A stretch of DNA of 5,751 nt, from NCBI GenBank assembly GCA_036845085.1, contig DAIUEN010000032.1:1-5751 (forward strand). The letters are read 5' to 3'. The position numbers were made by a program, and so were the translations under genes. Below, in pieces: positions 1 through 5,572 of the stretch. Source of the DNA: Candidatus Nanopusillus sp. GTDB taxonomy: Archaea; Nanobdellota; Nanobdellia; Nanobdellales; Nanobdellaceae. The stretch's first letter is position 1; each line of letters begins with the position of its first letter. Under the pieces are notes generated by a model. The model had not been told where the DNA came from, searched no databases, and saw only the letters and a list, made by a program, of their open reading frames with translations.

Positions 1-46
1 TAAAAAAAATAAAAAAAAATATACAAGATATAGAAAAAACTTTAAA

Positions 47-53
47 TTATATA
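47..53 (+). promoter_or_regulatory. Candidate TATA box upstream of the small ORF
   Basis: TTATATA at -31..-25 relative to ATG 78, preceded by the purine-rich GAAAAAAC. The spacing matches the other candidate promoters in this window. Confidence 0.3.
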
Positions 54-77
54 GAAAAACATACAAAAAGTAAGAAA

Positions 78-215
78 ATGATAAAGTTAATAGAAAAAAT
101 AAAGTTATTGATCAGGGAATTAGTTGTAGTAAAATTTGATAGGAAAAAATTTGGTAAAAAATTTGAGAAATCTCTAAAAAAAGTATTAAAAAAAGCTGTA
201 AAAAATGTACGATAA
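78..215 (+). CDS. Possible small Lys-rich protein (45 aa from ATG 78: MIKLIEKIKLLIRELVVVKFDRKKFGKKFEKSLKKVLKKAVKNVR). The same frame is open back to position 3, so it could instead be the 3' end of a gene starting upstream of the window.
   Basis: My own translation of frame 3; this ORF is not in the supplied track. ATG at 78..80, TAA at 213..215. TTATATA at 47..53 lies 25-31 nt upstream of the ATG. The ORF overlaps the next ORF (ATG 205) by 11 nt. Caveat: poly-A-rich sequence readily yields Lys-rich ORFs. Confidence 0.3.
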   Translation: MIKLIEKIKLLIRELVVVKFDRKKFGKKFEKSLKKVLKKAVKNVR

Positions 216-687
216 AAGAATAGAAATATTTTTTCATGATTTATGTACAGTATTATATAAAAGCTTAGTTTATGAAAGAAGTTTGATTTACTATACCATA
301 CCAGAAAATTACGAATATTTTTATCGAGATTTATGCAGAGAAATTTGGTATACCATTTTTAAAAATAAAGAAATATATAATTATGTAATACAATTTATCA
401 ATCATTATATGGATATTTATGGAAATAGACATCCAGATTATTACATATATCTAGAAGAAATAATGGAATCTATAATAATAGATATATGGTTTGAGGAATT
501 AAAAAGGAAAGAAAAGATATTAGATAAAATCCGAAAATATCTTTACCGTCTTATAAATATTATAAAACTTGATCGATGCAAAAATGAGTGCTTCTGTGAT
601 TTAGAAGAAAAAGAAAAAAATTACGTAATAAATAAGCTTTATAATAGTATGAAAATGTTAAAAAAGCTAATTTATCCTAGAATATAG
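205..687 (+). CDS. Hypothetical protein, 160 aa, Tyr-rich, no recognisable domain
   Basis: A 160-codon ORF is unlikely by chance where stop triplets are this frequent, and no competing ORF lies opposite. I count about 21 Tyr (~13%). There is a small Cys cluster, DRCKNECFCD, near the C-terminus. I recognise no family motif. Confidence 0.6.
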   Translation: MYDKRIEIFFHDLCTVLYKSLVYERSLIYYTIPENYEYFYRDLCREIWYTIFKNKEIYNYVIQFINHYMDIYGNRHPDYYIYLEEIMESIIIDIWFEELKRKEKILDKIRKYLYRLINIIKLDRCKNECFCDLEEKEKNYVINKLYNSMKMLKKLIYPRI

Positions 688-690
688 TAT

Positions 691-1446
691 CTACAATATA
701 TCTACTTTGTATTTATTAAGAATAGTCCTTTTCATTATATCTTTTATCTCTAAAGATTTTTCTAAAGCTAAAGATAAAGCTTCTCTTAATTCCCTTCTAT
801 ATATTTCTCCATCCAACTGTAGCAAAGTAAATTTTTTTTCAGACGGTATTATTGCAACTGGTATATCAGTAGCCCTACCTTCCCCATAGTAATTAATATA
901 ATTTTTCTTTTCGGGATCTTCCTTTAATTTTTCAGAATCATAATCTTCTTCCTCTTTTATTAAATCTACAACAATTTTTTCTCCAACTTTACCTACTGCT
1001 ACAGCAGTTACAAGATCTCTCATAGGAATTCCTGCATTTGCTAATGCTAAAGAAGCTGCATTTATACTAGCAGTTCTAGTACCAGCATCTGCATTTAATA
1101 TTTCTACATAAACATCAACAATGCTTCCAGGTAATTCTTCCAATAATAATGCTGGCTCTAAAGCCCTTTTTATTACTTCAGATAACTCTATTTCTCTCCT
1201 ACCAGGACCTGGTTTTTTTCTTTCAGGAACAGAAAATGTTAACATATCATATCTAACTCTTAGAAATGCTTTATCATAGTCTATAGACATTTTTGATGGT
1301 CTTATATAAACTGCAGCTAAAGCTTCAGTATTTCCAAATCTAAAATATCCAGATCCATCTGCATTTTTCAAGATTCCTATTCTAGCCTCCATTTCTCTTA
1401 ACTGGTTATAATCTCTTCCGTCAAATCTAAGAATATTTTTCATCAT
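691..1446 (-). CDS. rrp41: Exosome complex exonuclease Rrp41 (RNase PH domain, phosphorolytic 3'-5' exoribonuclease subunit)
   Basis: The protein matches archaeal Rrp41 hallmarks along its length. These include DGR..NQLR, LKNADGSGYF..GNT..LAAVY, LRVRY.M..FSV.ERKKPGPGRRE, DVYVEILNADAGTRTASINAASLALANAGIPMRDLV and TLLQLDG. The start overlaps the rrp4 stop (ATGA). Confidence 0.93.
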   Translation of the reverse strand: MMKNILRFDGRDYNQLREMEARIGILKNADGSGYFRFGNTEALAAVYIRPSKMSIDYDKAFLRVRYDMLTFSVPERKKPGPGRREIELSEVIKRALEPALLLEELPGSIVDVYVEILNADAGTRTASINAASLALANAGIPMRDLVTAVAVGKVGEKIVVDLIKEEEDYDSEKLKEDPEKKNYINYYGEGRATDIPVAIIPSEKKFTLLQLDGEIYRRELREALSLALEKSLEIKDIMKRTILNKYKVDIL

Positions 1447-2078
1447 GCTCTACCCTTTTCTATCATTTCTTTAACCTTTTCAGTCAATCCTTTTTTATAA
1501 GAATTTTTTATTATATATTCTATTACAGAAATTGTCCTCAGAACATTTAATTTATCTCCTGAAATAAATACTCTTCCGTTATTCCCAATAATAATATTTA
1601 CTTTAAGCATTTCTTTTAGTATATTCAACATAGATCCTTTTTTGCCTATGACTCTAGGCAATCTAACAGGATTTACAGAAATTATTACACCTTTTTCCAA
1701 CTTCCCCAATCCTTCTTCTTTTACTGTTAAATTTATTATTTTATTTTTACTTATTTTGTATATTTTGCACAATAGAAAATCTTCATAGGTATATAAATCA
1801 TTCAAGTCCATATTTTCTCCAATATTTGTGTCTTTTACTAATAAAAATCCCAAATATGGGGAATTTATGTCTATAACCCAGCCATTTGGTAATACATCAA
1901 TAACTTTCCCTATAATTACATCATTTAGTTTTGGTATATAAAAACCTTCTAACCTTGTTATTTTAACCCCATTATTTGTTTCTCTTAGAGATATAAATTT
2001 CGAATATCTATGCTCTCCTATACCATATGTATTTTCTATTTCTCCCTTTCCTACATAATCGCCAGGTATTACAATCAT
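1443..2078 (-). CDS. rrp4: Exosome complex RNA-binding cap protein Rrp4 (N-terminal domain + S1 + KH)
   Basis: S1 signature YIPKLNDVIIGKVIDVLPNGWVIDINSPYLGFL. KH domain with GXXG, LPRVIGKKGSMLNILKEMLKVNIIIGNNGRVFISG. C-terminal KGLTEKVKEMIEKG resembles crenarchaeal Rrp4 as I recall it. A KH domain rather than a Zn-ribbon distinguishes it from Csl4. Confidence 0.92.
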   Translation of the reverse strand: MIVIPGDYVGKGEIENTYGIGEHRYSKFISLRETNNGVKITRLEGFYIPKLNDVIIGKVIDVLPNGWVIDINSPYLGFLLVKDTNIGENMDLNDLYTYEDFLLCKIYKISKNKIINLTVKEEGLGKLEKGVIISVNPVRLPRVIGKKGSMLNILKEMLKVNIIIGNNGRVFISGDKLNVLRTISVIEYIIKNSYKKGLTEKVKEMIEKGRA

Positions 2079-3190
2079 TATATGTATCTAAAGATGTCAT
2101 CTTTATATATCCTTTGTATCATATAATTCCTTTCATTTTTGTGCTTTATTTTTTCCAATTCTTCATATAATAAGTAAAAAATATTATTTATTGTTGAATA
2201 TAACTCTATACCATCATAAGAAACATTAATATTTACTTTACTAGACCATAACCTAGCTTTTATTATAAATCTTATTATTCTATCTTCTATAGATTCATTA
2301 ACTTTTTTTATGTGTAAAACCAATCTGATGTCATCTCCTAATATTTTAGAATATTTTTTAATTAATCCTTCATATTTCTTCCTTATATATTTAATATCTA
2401 TTTCGTCTAAATCTATTCCATGAATTACAAGATTATATTGTTTTTCCTTTTTTAGTTGTAAATATGATATCAATATATCCTTTGCTGTTATTATTCCATA
2501 TATCTTATAATTCTCTAATACTGGTACAGAAAATATCCTATTATTTACTAGTGTTTCTATTACCTTTAATAAAGAATCTGTACTATTTACATAGATAAGT
2601 TTGTTACTAATTATAGATCTTACTTCTATCTCTAAATCTTTTTCTTCAAATGATCCAGAATTTCTTTCTTTTTCAAATACAAAATATCTTATTATATCTG
2701 ATAAAGAAATGATTCCTATAGGAGTATTATCCTTAGAACTTAATACAATTAGTCTAGATACTCCCTTACTTTTCATCAAACCTATTGCTTTAGATACATC
2801 ATCTTTATCATAAACAAAATATATGTTTCTATTTACTAAATTATTTATAGATAGTTTATTTATTATCTCTTTATCTTCTTTTATACTTTCCAATACTTCA
2901 AATATATTTACTATCTCTATTTTATCATCTTTTTTTACAGGAACTATCCTAGTATTTGACAATATCATTTTTTCTATTATATCTAATATATTATAATCTC
3001 CCAATGGCTTTATTCTTAAAGTAATTTTCTCTATTGTAGTATCTGGTCTATATAAATACTTAATAATCTTATCGTTTGATATAACCCCAAAATATTTTCC
3101 TTTATTATCTAAAACTAGAATATCTTCACCCTTCTTAATATAATCTATTATATCTGATATTTTCTTATCTTTTGTAACAGCAACAACCAT
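2078..3190 (-). CDS. Four-CBS (two Bateman modules) protein with a C-terminal ~115-aa domain resembling the HPF/RaiA (YfiA) ribosome-hibernation fold; start reassigned to Met50 of the 419-aa track ORF
   Basis: Four CBS-like repeats are visible: ..ILVLDNKGKYFGVISNDKIIKYL, ..TRIVPVKKDDKIEIVNIFEVLESI, ..VSRLIVLSSKDNTPIGIISLSDIIRYF and ..RIFSVPVLENYKIYGIITAKDILISYL. The C-terminal part (2081..2437) reads as beta-alpha-beta-beta-beta-alpha. Its elements are NLVIHGIDL / DEIDIKYIRKKYEGLIKKYSKIL / IRLVLHIKKV / RFIIKARLWS / VNINVSYDG / IELYSTINNIFYLLYEELEKIKHKNER. ATG at 3188..3190 avoids a 74-nt overlap with the upstream gene and has TTTTATTAA 23-31 nt upstream. The stop overlaps the rrp4 start (TAATG). 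Confidence 0.8.
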   Translation of the reverse strand: MVVAVTKDKKISDIIDYIKKGEDILVLDNKGKYFGVISNDKIIKYLYRPDTTIEKITLRIKPLGDYNILDIIEKMILSNTRIVPVKKDDKIEIVNIFEVLESIKEDKEIINKLSINNLVNRNIYFVYDKDDVSKAIGLMKSKGVSRLIVLSSKDNTPIGIISLSDIIRYFVFEKERNSGSFEEKDLEIEVRSIISNKLIYVNSTDSLLKVIETLVNNRIFSVPVLENYKIYGIITAKDILISYLQLKKEKQYNLVIHGIDLDEIDIKYIRKKYEGLIKKYSKILGDDIRLVLHIKKVNESIEDRIIRFIIKARLWSSKVNINVSYDGIELYSTINNIFYLLYEELEKIKHKNERNYMIQRIYKDDIFRYI

Positions 3191-3193
3191 AAG

Positions 3194-3229
3194 AAAAAAA
3201 TTTAAAAAAAGGTTAATAAAATTAAAAAA
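3194..3229 (-). terminator. Oligo-T runs (T6, T7, T7 on the minus strand) downstream of membrane paralog 3; possible archaeal intrinsic termination signals
   Basis: Plus-strand A6 at 3224..3229, A7 at 3204..3210 and A7 at 3194..3200 begin about 35 nt after the stop at 3264. Archaeal RNA polymerase is known to terminate at oligo-T tracts. The runs are interleaved with the candidate TATA box of the next unit. Confidence 0.25.
3213..3221 (-). promoter_or_regulatory. Candidate TATA box for the CBS-rrp4-rrp41 unit
   Basis: The minus strand reads TTTTATTAA at -31..-23 relative to the ATG at 3190. The AT-rich background lowers specificity. Confidence 0.35.
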
Positions 3230-3263
3230 CTTTAATTTAGTAGATTTATTTAGTGTCTTGTCG

Positions 3264-3923
3264 TTAGTTACTAAGATTACCTCCTGATTTACTTTGTGAT
3301 TTATCTCTCGCTTTATATAATAGATCTTCTGCGGCAACTACAACTCCTTCTGAAGTTTTTTTAATCCTATCCTTTAAGCTAGTTTGCTTTGGTGTTGAGG
3401 TCATCCAATGTATTAATGCAAACAATATTAAGAATATTATTAATATAGCTAATAGTCCAGATTCTATTAAGAATAAGAATATTGTCTCGACTATTTGTTG
3501 AGACCATACTCCAACTCCTTCAGGATCATAAGAGGCAGCATATAAAAATGCAAATACTACTGTTAAACCCAAAATTCCTTGAACAACTGTCCTAATCCTA
3601 TTTAAGTTAGAATTTTGAGAAGAATTTCCAAATCCTATGAATATAGATAATCCAATTAATATCATTAGTAAAACTAACATTTCATAGAAGAAGAATGAAA
3701 TAAATCTAGCAGTAAAGAATACTAATCCTACTTTATATACAAAATACATAGCAATGGCAAATGATATTACCGCATATATTCTTTCAGATTCAGATTTATT
3801 TCCAAATAATCTTGCTTTTCTAATCAATCCATATATTAGTGAAAATATTAACAAAAACGGGGCAATTATTGTGAATATTCCATATTGCATAAATAAAGAA
3901 TAAAATGTTGAAACAAACTCCAT
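3264..3923 (-). CDS. Membrane protein, about 5 TM, unknown family (paralog 3 of 3), with a Ser/Lys-rich hydrophilic C-tail
   Basis: Shares with the two upstream genes the N-terminal TM motif G(I/F)F.II.PFLLIFSL(I/V)YGLI, followed by a basic loop. Also shares the C-terminal ETIF..LIESGLL..IIFLILF.LI.WMT..PK. Tail sequence is KQTSLKDRIKKTSEGVVVAAEDLLYKARDKSQSKSGGNLSN. No Cys residues. Confidence 0.75.
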   Translation of the reverse strand: MEFVSTFYSLFMQYGIFTIIAPFLLIFSLIYGLIRKARLFGNKSESERIYAVISFAIAMYFVYKVGLVFFTARFISFFFYEMLVLLMILIGLSIFIGFGNSSQNSNLNRIRTVVQGILGLTVVFAFLYAASYDPEGVGVWSQQIVETIFLFLIESGLLAILIIFLILFALIHWMTSTPKQTSLKDRIKKTSEGVVVAAEDLLYKARDKSQSKSGGNLSN

Positions 3924-3933
3924 CTTTATTTAT

Positions 3934-4509
3934 CTAAGAACTTTGTTGCTGTTGTTGCTGAGCCTGTTGCTGTTGGCCAGTTTTAGAAGGTTTTGTCATC
4001 CAATATATTATCAAGAACAATATTAGAAATATTATTATTACTACCAATAATCCAGATTCTATTAGATAGGCAAATATAGTTTCTAATATTATACTATTAA
4101 CCGCAACTGAAGGTGTTGAAAATGAAGAAAATGCAGCATATAATATAAATATCATTATTAGCATATATATAGTTCCTTTCACCCAGACTGGAATATCTTT
4201 ATCATATACTGCCAATGCCAATGCTAATAAGAAAAATGCTAAGATTACTAAAGCGGCTTGTCCTACAAAATTTAGCAATGCATTCATTATATGTTGGTTT
4301 TGAAGTGCTAGCAAAGAAAAACCAAAAGAAAATAGTATTTCTATTCTATGACCTTGTACATCCCTGTCGCCTTCAGATAATAAATTCGAAAATCTAATTA
4401 ACATATAAACTAAAGAAAATATCAATAAGAATGGTAGAATTATATGAAAGAATCCTAGTTGAGTTAAATTTCCATAGAATATCTCATTAACATTTAATGT
4501 CTGAGGCAT
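3934..4509 (-). CDS. Membrane protein, about 5 TM, unknown family (paralog 2 of 3), with a poly-Gln C-tail
   Basis: N-terminal motif LGFFHIILPFLLIFSLVYMLI and C-terminal LETIFAYLIESGLLVVIIIFLILFLIIYWMTKPSK, then TGQQQQAQQQQQQSS. It starts 5 nt after the paralog 1 stop and ends 10 nt before the paralog 3 start. Confidence 0.75.
   Translation of the reverse strand: MPQTLNVNEIFYGNLTQLGFFHIILPFLLIFSLVYMLIRFSNLLSEGDRDVQGHRIEILFSFGFSLLALQNQHIMNALLNFVGQAALVILAFFLLALALAVYDKDIPVWVKGTIYMLIMIFILYAAFSSFSTPSVAVNSIILETIFAYLIESGLLVVIIIFLILFLIIYWMTKPSKTGQQQQAQQQQQQSS
3943..3975 (-). repeat. CAA/CAG codon tract encoding QQQQAQQQQQQ
   Basis: The plus strand reads ttg ttg ctg ttg ttg ctg agc ctg ttg ctg ttg, an imperfect trinucleotide repeat at the 3' end of membrane paralog 2. 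Confidence 0.9.
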
Positions 4510-4514
4510 TTTAA

Positions 4515-5108
4515 CTATTTATTACCACCACCTGAACCACCTTGTTTGCTACCTCCACTTCCGCCCACTGGCCTTGTTATCCAATATACAAAGCCCATTA
4601 GTATTCCTAATACTACCATAGTCATAATAAATCCTAATACTTCAGTATTATTAAATATATCGCCAAAAACAGAAAATATAGATATAAGGCCAAAGGAATA
4701 TAATGCAACTAGAAAAAATATTACCGTTGCTAATATTCCAACAACTTTTTTATAATTATCGCTAACTATTTCTCCAGTATCAGATTTTACTAAAAATGGA
4801 GATACCGATAGTAATAACATGAATAATACTAATATATACAAAACAAAATAGGGAATTATCTCCCTTATATTTATAACAACATTAACAGAACCTACAACAA
4901 AGAATGATATAGAAGCAGAAACCATTGCAATTATACTTCTAACCGCTCTAGCTTTAACTTCGTTTGAAGTATCAAAAGGATCTCCTAATATTTTATACTT
5001 TGAAAGTAATCCATATACTATAGAATATACAAGTATAAATGGTAATATTATGTTAAAGAATCCCATGTAGTTCAGTATATTCAATATTATTTCCCACATT
5101 GATGACAT
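4515..5108 (-). CDS. Membrane protein, about 5 TM, unknown family (paralog 1 of 3, most diverged), with a Gly/Ser-rich C-tail
   Basis: N-terminal motif MGFFNIILPFILVYSIVYGLLSKYKILG and final TM LGFIMTMVVLGILMGFVYWITRP, then VGGSGGSKQGGSGGGNK. TTATATATA lies 21-29 nt upstream of the ATG. Confidence 0.75.
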   Translation of the reverse strand: MSSMWEIILNILNYMGFFNIILPFILVYSIVYGLLSKYKILGDPFDTSNEVKARAVRSIIAMVSASISFFVVGSVNVVINIREIIPYFVLYILVLFMLLLSVSPFLVKSDTGEIVSDNYKKVVGILATVIFFLVALYSFGLISIFSVFGDIFNNTEVLGFIMTMVVLGILMGFVYWITRPVGGSGGSKQGGSGGGNK

Positions 5109-5140: not shown

Positions 5141-5350
5141 TTATTCTTCAGATATAAGTTGAATAAGTATAGCATTAACAGGACATGATCTTACAGCTAT
5201 GAGTGCATTATTTATTTCTTCTTCATTCTCTAAAATTTTTTTATTTATAAAAATTTTTCCATTTTTAATACCAAAGATATTTCTATCTATTATATAACAT
5301 AACATACAGCCAGTACATTTATTATAGTCTATATCTATATAATATTTCAT
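5141..5350 (-). CDS. Small ferredoxin-like protein, single Fe-S cluster type (divergent paralog)
   Basis: 69 aa with exactly four Cys, arranged C12-x2-C15-x2-C18 ... C56-P. This is the ligand pattern of single-cluster [4Fe-4S]/[3Fe-4S] ferredoxins. It has the same length and C-terminal EE as its upstream neighbour, from which it is separated by 12 nt. Confidence 0.7.
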   Translation of the reverse strand: MKYYIDIDYNKCTGCMLCYIIDRNIFGIKNGKIFINKKILENEEEINNALIAVRSCPVNAILIQLISEE

Positions 5351-5362
5351 AAAAAATATAAA

Positions 5363-5572
5363 TTATTCTTCTTTAATCTTTATAGCGCCGGTAGGACATG
5401 CATTTGCCGCTTCTTTAGCTTTTTCCATTAAATTTTCATCAGTAACTTCATTTAATTTACTATGACTTTTTCCATCAGTATCCCATTCAAATATTTCTGG
5501 GGCTATTGCTATACATGCTCCACAAGCAATACACAAATTTTTATCAACCCATACATTTAATTTTTTTGTCAT
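5363..5572 (-). CDS. fdx: Ferredoxin, single [4Fe-4S] cluster (Pyrococcus/Thermotoga type)
   Basis: VWVDKNLCIACGACIAIAPEIFEWDTDGK...AKEAANACPTGAIKI contains C14-x2-C17-x2-C20 ... C59-P. Overall it resembles the roughly 60-70-aa monocluster ferredoxins of thermophilic archaea and bacteria, as I recall them. Confidence 0.88.
   Translation of the reverse strand: MTKKLNVWVDKNLCIACGACIAIAPEIFEWDTDGKSHSKLNEVTDENLMEKAKEAANACPTGAIKIKEE

Follow-up and report, generated by a model that had tools for sequence, protein, structure and literature searches.

What does a gene that joins four CBS motifs to an HPF/RaiA-like ribosome-silencing domain encode in an archaeon, and why does it sit directly against the exosome genes rrp4 and rrp41? 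The question is raised by a stretch of DNA from Candidatus Nanopusillus sp. (contig DAIUEN010000032.1; 5751 nucleotides (nt), 26% G+C), hereafter the window, whose minus strand carries two ferredoxin genes, three membrane-protein genes, the fusion gene, rrp4 and rrp41, in that order. We conclude that the fusion gene very probably encodes an archaeal ribosome hibernation factor of the HibA/AHA family, in a Nanopusillaceae-like genome (DPANN, Nanoarchaeota), and we refer to it as hibA. The family is already known from two papers of 2026; what the window adds is a slightly trimmed DPANN member in an operon context that is unreported.

The gene occupies 2078..3190 on the minus strand and specifies 370 amino acids followed by a TAA stop. 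A mechanical list of open reading frames (ORFs) gives a longer version with a TTG start (419 amino acids, 2078..3337, minus strand), and by its first 49 codons this version extends over the 3' end of the upstream gene at 3264..3923. The TTG at 3337 was rejected as the start, since it runs into that gene and the extension is found in none of 18 homologues. Because all 18 begin at the Met that corresponds to the ATG at 3190 (MVVAV...), the 370-codon frame is the real gene, with the same boundaries as in an earlier account made from the sequence (the preliminary description).

The N-terminal module (residues 1-248; 2447..3190, minus strand) holds four CBS motifs, that is, two Bateman modules. Pfam detects CBS in three significant stretches of the window protein (1.5e-24), and an AlphaFold2 (AF2) model of the whole protein, computed on the family alignment with a predicted local distance difference test (pLDDT) of 86.1 and a predicted template modelling score of 0.84, aligns over 256-290 columns with the four-CBS proteins SriA, MJ1225, AMPK-gamma and Dri in a Foldseek search of the PDB, where CBS-tetrad proteins dominate the list. 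The tetrad proposed in the preliminary description is therefore well founded. For the CBS module the best match was the 50S-binding SriA (9znf_4, 5.9e-15), which is in line with the origin published for the HibA/AHA CBS module, an SriA/CM-5-like ancestor (PMC13324472, PMC12934967). The Foldseek PDB library ends at 2026-04-08 and contains no entry of the 9SR series, so HibA is not among these matches.

Two of the four ribose-binding motifs (G-x-x-S/T-x-x-D) are kept, as judged by alignment conservation. The CBS3 motif reads G159-I-I-S-L-S-D165 (2696..2716, minus strand), with G159 and D165 invariant in 19 of 19 family members and present in 51 and 48, respectively, of 51 diverse HibA sequences. 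The CBS4 motif reads G232-I-I-T-A-K-D238 (2477..2497, minus strand); G232 is found in 18 of the 19 family members, T235 and D238 in all 19, and the corresponding counts among the 51 diverse sequences are 51, 48 and 48. In CBS1 and CBS2 the motif is degenerate, as is common in HibA sequences generally. This pattern agrees with where HibA and AHA bind nucleotides, at CBS3/CBS4, and the two intact sites probably bind AMP, ADP or ATP. After CBS3 comes an extended loop (residues ~173-190; 2621..2674, minus strand), the counterpart of the 'PTC loop' of HibA and the 'loop 3' of AHA, which aligns with residues about 190-207 of Pyrococcus abyssi HibA (Pa-HibA) and is mostly coil, modelled with low confidence (pLDDT 58-75).

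The C-terminal HPF/RaiA-like domain (residues ~251-370; 2081..2440, minus strand) was assigned from a family profile and its predicted fold. [quoted passage not shown] Also present is the K-H-K-N-E-R basic patch (residues 349-354, or 345-353 for the longer form 'EKIKHKNER'), aligned by HMMER with 'LTKHKDKLK' of Escherichia coli HPF; the basic residues K295 and K349 of the domain are invariant in the family. When a profile of 16 family C-terminal domains was searched against all PDB sequences, the first match was P. abyssi chain 9sr9_H (labelled 'Dehydrogenase'; 5e-7), and the matches also included E. coli HPF (1.6e-3 to 2.4e-3), the set of E. coli, Vibrio cholerae and Staphylococcus aureus HPF plus RaiA (1.6e-3 to 3e-2), the CBS-plus-HPF chain 9l96_a and RaiA/YfiA/pY. 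A separate AF2 model of the domain (pLDDT 88.2) gave Foldseek PDB matches of which the best 24 are all ribosome-bound factors of the HPF/RaiA/pY/PSRP1 type (1e-5 to 2e-3; TM up to 0.73/0.87, with a root-mean-square deviation of 1.8 A to Listeria HPF); neither an ACT domain nor any other unrelated ferredoxin-like fold took their place. With 24 of 24 such matches by structure, and with 23 of the 25 profile matches at E<=10 being HibA, CBS-plus-HPF-type or HPF/RaiA/pY proteins (the other two are designed helical repeats), a chance resemblance to HPF is excluded.

The full-length comparisons identify the family. In a phmmer search of the PDB the top match of the window protein was Pa-HibA (9sr9_H, 1.5e-15, query residues 11-301), from entry 9SR9, the 'HibA-ATP' structure of PMC13324472, and BLASTP against the reconstructed Pa-HibA sequence gave 25% identity over 354 columns (2e-16). 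The family profile, run against 1.84 billion representative proteins, retrieved 321 at E<=1e-30, most of them 360-400 amino acids long and aligned end to end, including members from Archaeoglobus, Nitrososphaerales and Altiarchaeales; a Thermococcales representative that is 83% identical to Pa-HibA (P0086) matched at 1.2e-40, with positions 11-364 aligned to 23-387. Profiles, predicted fold and the match to a characterised protein all agree with the fusion of a CBS tetrad to a ribosome-silencing-type domain put forward in the preliminary description. The statement there that canonical HPF is bacterial or plastidial is out of date, now that an archaeal family has been characterised, and its tentative lead, cryo-electron microscopy (cryo-EM) reports of CBS-domain proteins on hibernating archaeal ribosomes, was correct (PMC13324472, PMC12934967 in both cases).

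HibA was described in P. abyssi (PAB0961 / Q9UYR4) and Thermococcus barophilus (Madru et al., Nat Commun 2026, PMC13324472; PDB 9SR9-9SRF, 9T7H), and is found on about three quarters of the hibernating-like 70S particles of stressed P. abyssi (PMC13324472). In Pa-HibA four CBS domains span residues 1-269, and residues 270-392 make up the HPF/RaiA-like C-terminal domain; by cryo-EM the latter occupies the 30S subunit's mRNA/tRNA channel, and the CBS module is seen at three places on the 50S subunit, the long CBS3 loop entering the peptidyl-transferase centre from one of them (PMC13324472). In the family's cryo-EM structures both the channel and the tRNA sites of the 50S subunit are blocked (PMC13324472, PMC12934967). 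An independent description of the same family is that of AHA from Haloferax volcanii (HVO_2384; Souza et al., bioRxiv 2026, PMC12934967), in which two AMP molecules are bound where CBS3 meets CBS4 and the peptidyl-transferase centre is reached by loop 3; its authors hypothesise that AMP stabilises binding (PMC12934967). The HibA family is reported from 47% of archaeal genomes (PMC13324472), and across the two papers CBS-tetrad-HPF fusions are the main archaeal hibernation factors, in roughly 40-47% of archaeal genomes or species (PMC13324472, PMC12934967).

Measured against these systems, the window protein has HibA as its best match among solved structures for both modules and keeps the motifs of the CBS3/CBS4 nucleotide site. 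It differs from HibA in its sequence (~25% identical), in a CBS3 loop segment of 23 residues (4 shorter than the mode of 27 in 51 HibA sequences), in a beta1-alpha1 stretch 2 residues shorter than that of Pa-HibA and without a clear insertion relative to HPF, and in its location within an operon with rrp4-rrp41, whereas the Thermococcales representative has unrelated neighbours. With AHA it shares an AMPK-gamma-like CBS tetrad followed by an HPF domain, AMPK-gamma being among the best matches of the window model; a linkage to the exosome is impossible there, since H. volcanii reportedly has no RNA exosome (PMC10470531). With the bacterial and plastid HPF/RaiA proteins (YfiA, pY, PSRP1) the C-terminal domain shares the fold and presumably the site in the 30S decoding channel. 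Those proteins, however, are either stand-alone domains of ~95-115 amino acids or long HPF with a C-terminal dimerisation domain, and the window protein fits neither type: its domain stands at the C-terminal end of a 370-residue protein, behind a CBS tetrad, with an extra C-terminal helix and a beta2-beta3 hairpin that exceeds its counterpart in E. coli HPF by about 10-12 residues. [quoted passage not shown] Dri of the Thermoproteota and SriA-D / ARC-A/P of Methanosarcina are likewise CBS tetrads, which sit on ribosomal tRNA sites, but Dri has two tetrads, the Sri proteins are stand-alone tetrads, and none of them carries the HPF/RaiA domain that the window protein has.

The second half of the question concerns the genes that follow. 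Downstream of hibA on the minus strand lie rrp4, for the exosome cap subunit with S1 and KH domains (1443..2078; 211 amino acids; NCBIfam Rrp4 2.7e-56; Pfam RRP4_S1 and KH_6), and rrp41, for the RNase PH-type core subunit (691..1446; 251 amino acids; NCBIfam ECX1/Rrp41 1.3e-77; Pfam RNase_PH 2.5e-33 and RNase_PH_C). Neither protein reaches its NCBIfam equivalog cut-off (190.2 versus 200 bits for Rrp4, 260.2 versus 318.7 bits for Rrp41). Both junctions noted earlier are real: the hibA stop (TAA, 2080..2078) and the rrp4 start (ATG, 2078..2076) share one base in TAATG (2076..2080, minus strand), and the rrp41 start (ATG, 1446..1444) and the rrp4 stop (TGA, 1445..1443) overlap in the four bases ATGA (1443..1446, minus strand).

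This arrangement is conserved among close relatives. A search for related loci with an alignment of close family members reached Nanopusillaceae-type genomes, besides unrelated CBS proteins from cyanobacteria and others that were set aside, and the closest homologues (42-55% identity) come from Candidatus Nanopusillus, Nanobsidianus, Nanoclepta, Nanobdella aerobiophila and strain YN1; four complete genomes of these close relatives, which are DPANN ectosymbionts, measure about 0.6-0.77 Mb. The order ferredoxins, three membrane proteins, hibA, rrp4, rrp41, all on one strand, is found in the window and in 13 of 13 Nanopusillaceae-type species. In these 14 loci the hibA stop lies -1 to +2 nt from the rrp4 start, and rrp4 and rrp41 are spaced by -14 to +3 nt. 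Because such spacing leaves no room for a promoter, hibA, rrp4 and rrp41 almost certainly form one transcript, and their co-transcription can safely be inferred; translational coupling would also be plausible.

The linkage loosens with evolutionary distance. In three more divergent relatives (34-41% identity to the window protein) a helix-turn-helix gene stands between hibA and rrp4, with rrp41 following; the window's family lacks this gene, and there hibA and rrp4 are immediate neighbours. The inserted protein has 140-150 amino acids and resembles HTH_38/HTH_40/Sigma70_r4_2 (locus L083, 6186..6638; L088, 1571..1993; L090, 1615..2064). In a relative of the P0023 lineage at 34% identity the exosome linkage is absent, and the order on a single short contig is hibA-rps19-rpoL (L095, 1015..2827); uS19 is among the ribosomal proteins that contact the HPF domain of HibA in the P. 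abyssi structure (PMC13324472). For more distant lineages, gene contexts were taken from cluster members of the family-profile matches, a sample that does not include Nanoarchaeum equitans. The neighbours of hibA in Archaeoglobus fulgidus (CP006577.1) are unrelated, without an rrp4-rrp41 linkage, and no exosome genes were found near hibA in the sampled loci of Thermococcales, Nitrososphaerales, Altiarchaeales and the P0025 lineage. The A. fulgidus homologue (L085, 5001..6173) does lie about 5 kb downstream of the exosome-cap gene csl4 and rpoL (1..443), from which genes for a histidine kinase, UbiD and DUF2070 separate it, and this proximity to csl4 is probably coincidental.

The linkage between hibA and the exosome genes is real, confined to the nanoarchaeal lineage sampled, and unreported: neither family paper (PMC13324472, PMC12934967) mentions it, and the literature searched contained no paper combining hibernation factors with Rrp41 in archaea. 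The tie to the RNA-degradation genes stands as gene organisation (the window and 13 species, plus three with a one-gene spacer), and the CBSx4-HPF architecture does recur beside rrp4 in 13 related species, but the linkage is absent from one lineage at middle distance and five distant ones. The joint 'ribosome/RNA shutdown module' stays hypothetical, because the linkage is confined to the nanoarchaeal lineage.

Two further features of the operon deserve attention. Contiguous rrp4-rrp41-rrp42, the canonical archaeal exosome operon, is absent from the window, where a convergent unrelated ORF follows rrp41, and rrp42 does not adjoin rrp41 in any related nanoarchaeal locus (L001, L003, L005-L007, L083, L088). 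Since Cluster 2 DPANN are reported to encode Rrp4, Rrp41 and Rrp42 and to lack Csl4 (PMC7414124), rrp42 is presumably elsewhere in the genome. Upstream of hibA lies an A/T-rich spacer of 73 nt (3191..3263, minus strand), in which inspection showed no Shine-Dalgarno motif but did show a TATA-like TTTATTAA, located at 3213..3220 and thus at -30 to -23 relative to the ATG; a TTTAAAAA-type box occurs at a similar distance in several relatives. The spacer is a possible candidate promoter for a leaderless hibA-rrp4-rrp41 mRNA. At 26% G+C the box upstream of hibA has no statistical weight, and since the spacer measures only 17-41 nt in relatives, hibA may also be reached by read-through from the upstream genes.

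Does the arrangement reflect a functional coupling of HibA and the exosome that goes beyond co-transcription? HibA made in a fixed ratio with Rrp4 and Rrp41 might shield rRNA 3' ends from the exosome, or the two might be in direct contact, low energy silencing the ribosomes and redirecting RNA decay at the same time. The tight gene order persists down to 42% HibA identity and survives, with the inserted helix-turn-helix gene, at 34-41%, and there is a precedent in aSBDS, a ribosome-associated factor that is also encoded with exosome genes: it is encoded in the exosome superoperon predicted for other archaea (Koonin et al. 2001, as cited in PMC2695463), has a slight inhibitory effect in vitro on the breakdown of poly-rA by the exosome (PMC2890523) and is present on idle P. 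abyssi ribosomes next to HibA (PMC13324472). A functional meaning is favoured by this precedent and because the exosome is, according to the HibA authors, the main archaeal 3' to 5' RNA-decay activity, RNase R being mostly absent (PMC13324472). It is disfavoured because the whole block of ~7 kb, from the ferredoxins to rrp41, is syntenic in these very small, compact genomes, so that the adjacency may be inherited order plus genome compaction, and because the linkage was found in none of the other six lineages sampled. aSBDS, moreover, is an unrelated protein whose exosome linkage is widespread, unlike that of hibA, and no paper in the literature searched links a hibernation factor with Rrp41. 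On balance we regard such an integrated module as unlikely, though worth keeping in mind.

Several points weigh against the identification of the protein as a HibA/AHA-type hibernation factor, or against carrying the properties of HibA over to it. The nanoarchaeal protein is known from its sequence and a predicted fold, whose structural matches come from a Foldseek library older than the HibA entries. A Pfam search of the window's own C-terminal domain gave no match to PF02482, the family named as a check in the preliminary description, with only CBS being detected in the protein, and TIGR00741 (yfiA) scored 17.5 bits on the domain against a cut-off of 40.9 (0.0044). Because it falls below these curated Pfam and TIGRFAM thresholds, the case for its homology to HPF is made by the family profile together with the fold prediction; 14 of the 16 family domains do match PF02482 individually (best 3.1e-5). 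Insertion of the shorter CBS3 loop into the peptidyl-transferase centre may differ from that in HibA. Pa-HibA binds AMP (dissociation constant 12 uM), ADP and ATP with no clear change in ribosome binding (PMC13324472), and energy gating is thereby unproven for the family as a whole; of the 'nucleotide-gated' silencing factor proposed in the preliminary description, the silencing-type domain holds, and the gating goes beyond the data even for P. abyssi. Finally, the ortholog of Ca. Nanopusillus acidilobi (CP010514.1; L014, about 3975..4010) appears to be frameshifted in a run of A that follows codon 10, reading MTVFISKDKK-stop before continuing in another frame; a sequencing error in the homopolymer, pseudogenisation or a slippery site could each explain this.

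Could the protein instead be a generic CBS-tetrad regulator working off the ribosome, such as a transcription factor like HhpR of Pyrococcus yayanosii or the regulatory subunit of an enzyme? CBS tetrads are found in many functional contexts (PMC13324472, PMC12934967), Pfam sees only CBS in the window protein, and source annotations call members of the family 'predicted transcriptional regulator' or 'homoserine O-acetyltransferase'. Both of these annotations were rejected, as no DNA-binding domain and no acetyltransferase domain was detected in Pfam and NCBIfam searches. HhpR and CM-3 are stand-alone CBS modules without HPF, whereas the window protein has a well-supported HPF/RaiA-type domain and strong full-length homology to HibA, which makes a role of this kind highly improbable. 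Labels among the orthologs (P0002, P0003, P0007 and P0010 among them) range over 'predicted transcriptional regulator', 'hypothetical protein', 'CBS domain-containing protein' and 'homoserine O-acetyltransferase' (N. aerobiophila), and one JGI record is labelled correctly as 'CBS domain-containing protein/ribosome-associated translation inhibitor RaiA'. The orthologs can be re-annotated as HibA/AHA.

Least probable of all is that the gene is a decaying HibA-derived relic, its function lost in a reduced symbiont genome and its frame kept by the overlap with rrp4: the shortened CBS3 loop, the degenerate CBS1 and CBS2 motifs and the frameshifted N. acidilobi copy point that way, but the window and no fewer than 12 other species have a complete, uninterrupted reading frame, invariant residues mark the CBS3/CBS4 motifs and the basic positions K295 and K349, AF2 confidence is high, the gene is retained in genomes of about 0.6-0.77 Mb, and the CBS1/CBS2 degeneracy is shared with HibA at large.

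The remaining genes of the window are as follows. Two single-cluster 4Fe-4S ferredoxins of 69 amino acids each (5363..5572 and 5141..5350, minus strand; Fer4_13/Fer4_15) head the conserved block, with three ferredoxin copies in some relatives. Between them and hibA stands a tandem of three genes for paralogous membrane proteins of the multi-pass type (4515..5108, 3934..4509 and 3264..3923, minus strand; 197, 191 and 219 amino acids, respectively), for which a Pfam search of the window proteins gave no significant family. Their C-terminal tails are of low complexity (poly-Q; Gly/Ser-rich), and the trio stands directly upstream of hibA in 13 of 13 related species at 35-47% identity. On the plus strand, an ORF of 160 amino acids rich in Tyr, Ile and Lys (205..687) is convergent with rrp41, their stop codons 3 nt apart; a family search gave no match for it, and it is not kept at this position in relatives, in which the genes downstream of rrp41 vary. 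A scan of the window for tRNA genes and Rfam families found none.

Read as a HibA/AHA-type factor, the window protein would act as follows, by homology with HibA and AHA as seen by cryo-EM. The HPF-type domain would occupy the decoding channel of the small subunit and keep out mRNA and A/P-site tRNA, while the tethered CBS tetrad would fill the vacant tRNA sites of the 50S subunit, from where the extended CBS3 loop could reach the peptidyl-transferase centre. The idle 70S ribosome would in this way be held assembled, blocked in translation and shielded from nucleases, until tRNA and mRNA compete for it and the factor is released. Adenylate binding at CBS3/CBS4 is likely. The place of hibA in an operon with housekeeping exosome genes suggests that it would be synthesised constitutively along with the exosome and controlled at the level of the protein, not by transcription. 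Levels of AHA are similar in growth and stationary phase (PMC12934967), which is compatible with constitutive co-expression; in the Thermococcales, by contrast, the heat-shock repressor Phr reportedly controls hibA (PMC13324472).

For the family, a full-length HibA in a DPANN lineage is a modest addition, given that DPANN are reported to have mostly stand-alone HPF-like proteins and that the main text of the HibA paper does not name the Nanoarchaeota (PMC13324472). For the organisms, that the gene is kept in genomes ranking among the smallest known for cells is an argument that parking ribosomes is important where energy comes from a host. It is conceivable, if rather improbable, that in Nanoarchaeota, which live as obligate ectosymbionts on genomes of about 0.6-0.8 Mb, the exosome operon has taken in the hibernation factor, to the effect that the protector of ribosomes and the main decay machine are made in a fixed ratio, with an AMP/ATP-sensing HibA deciding, according to the energy supplied by the host, whether ribosomes are parked and shielded or turned over by the exosome; if true, co-regulation of hibernation and rRNA decay would here have its first genomic support in archaea. 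The hibA-rrp4-rrp41 operon is the one unreported feature of the locus and, if functional, would offer a handle on the question asked by the HibA authors, namely which nuclease hibernation guards against.

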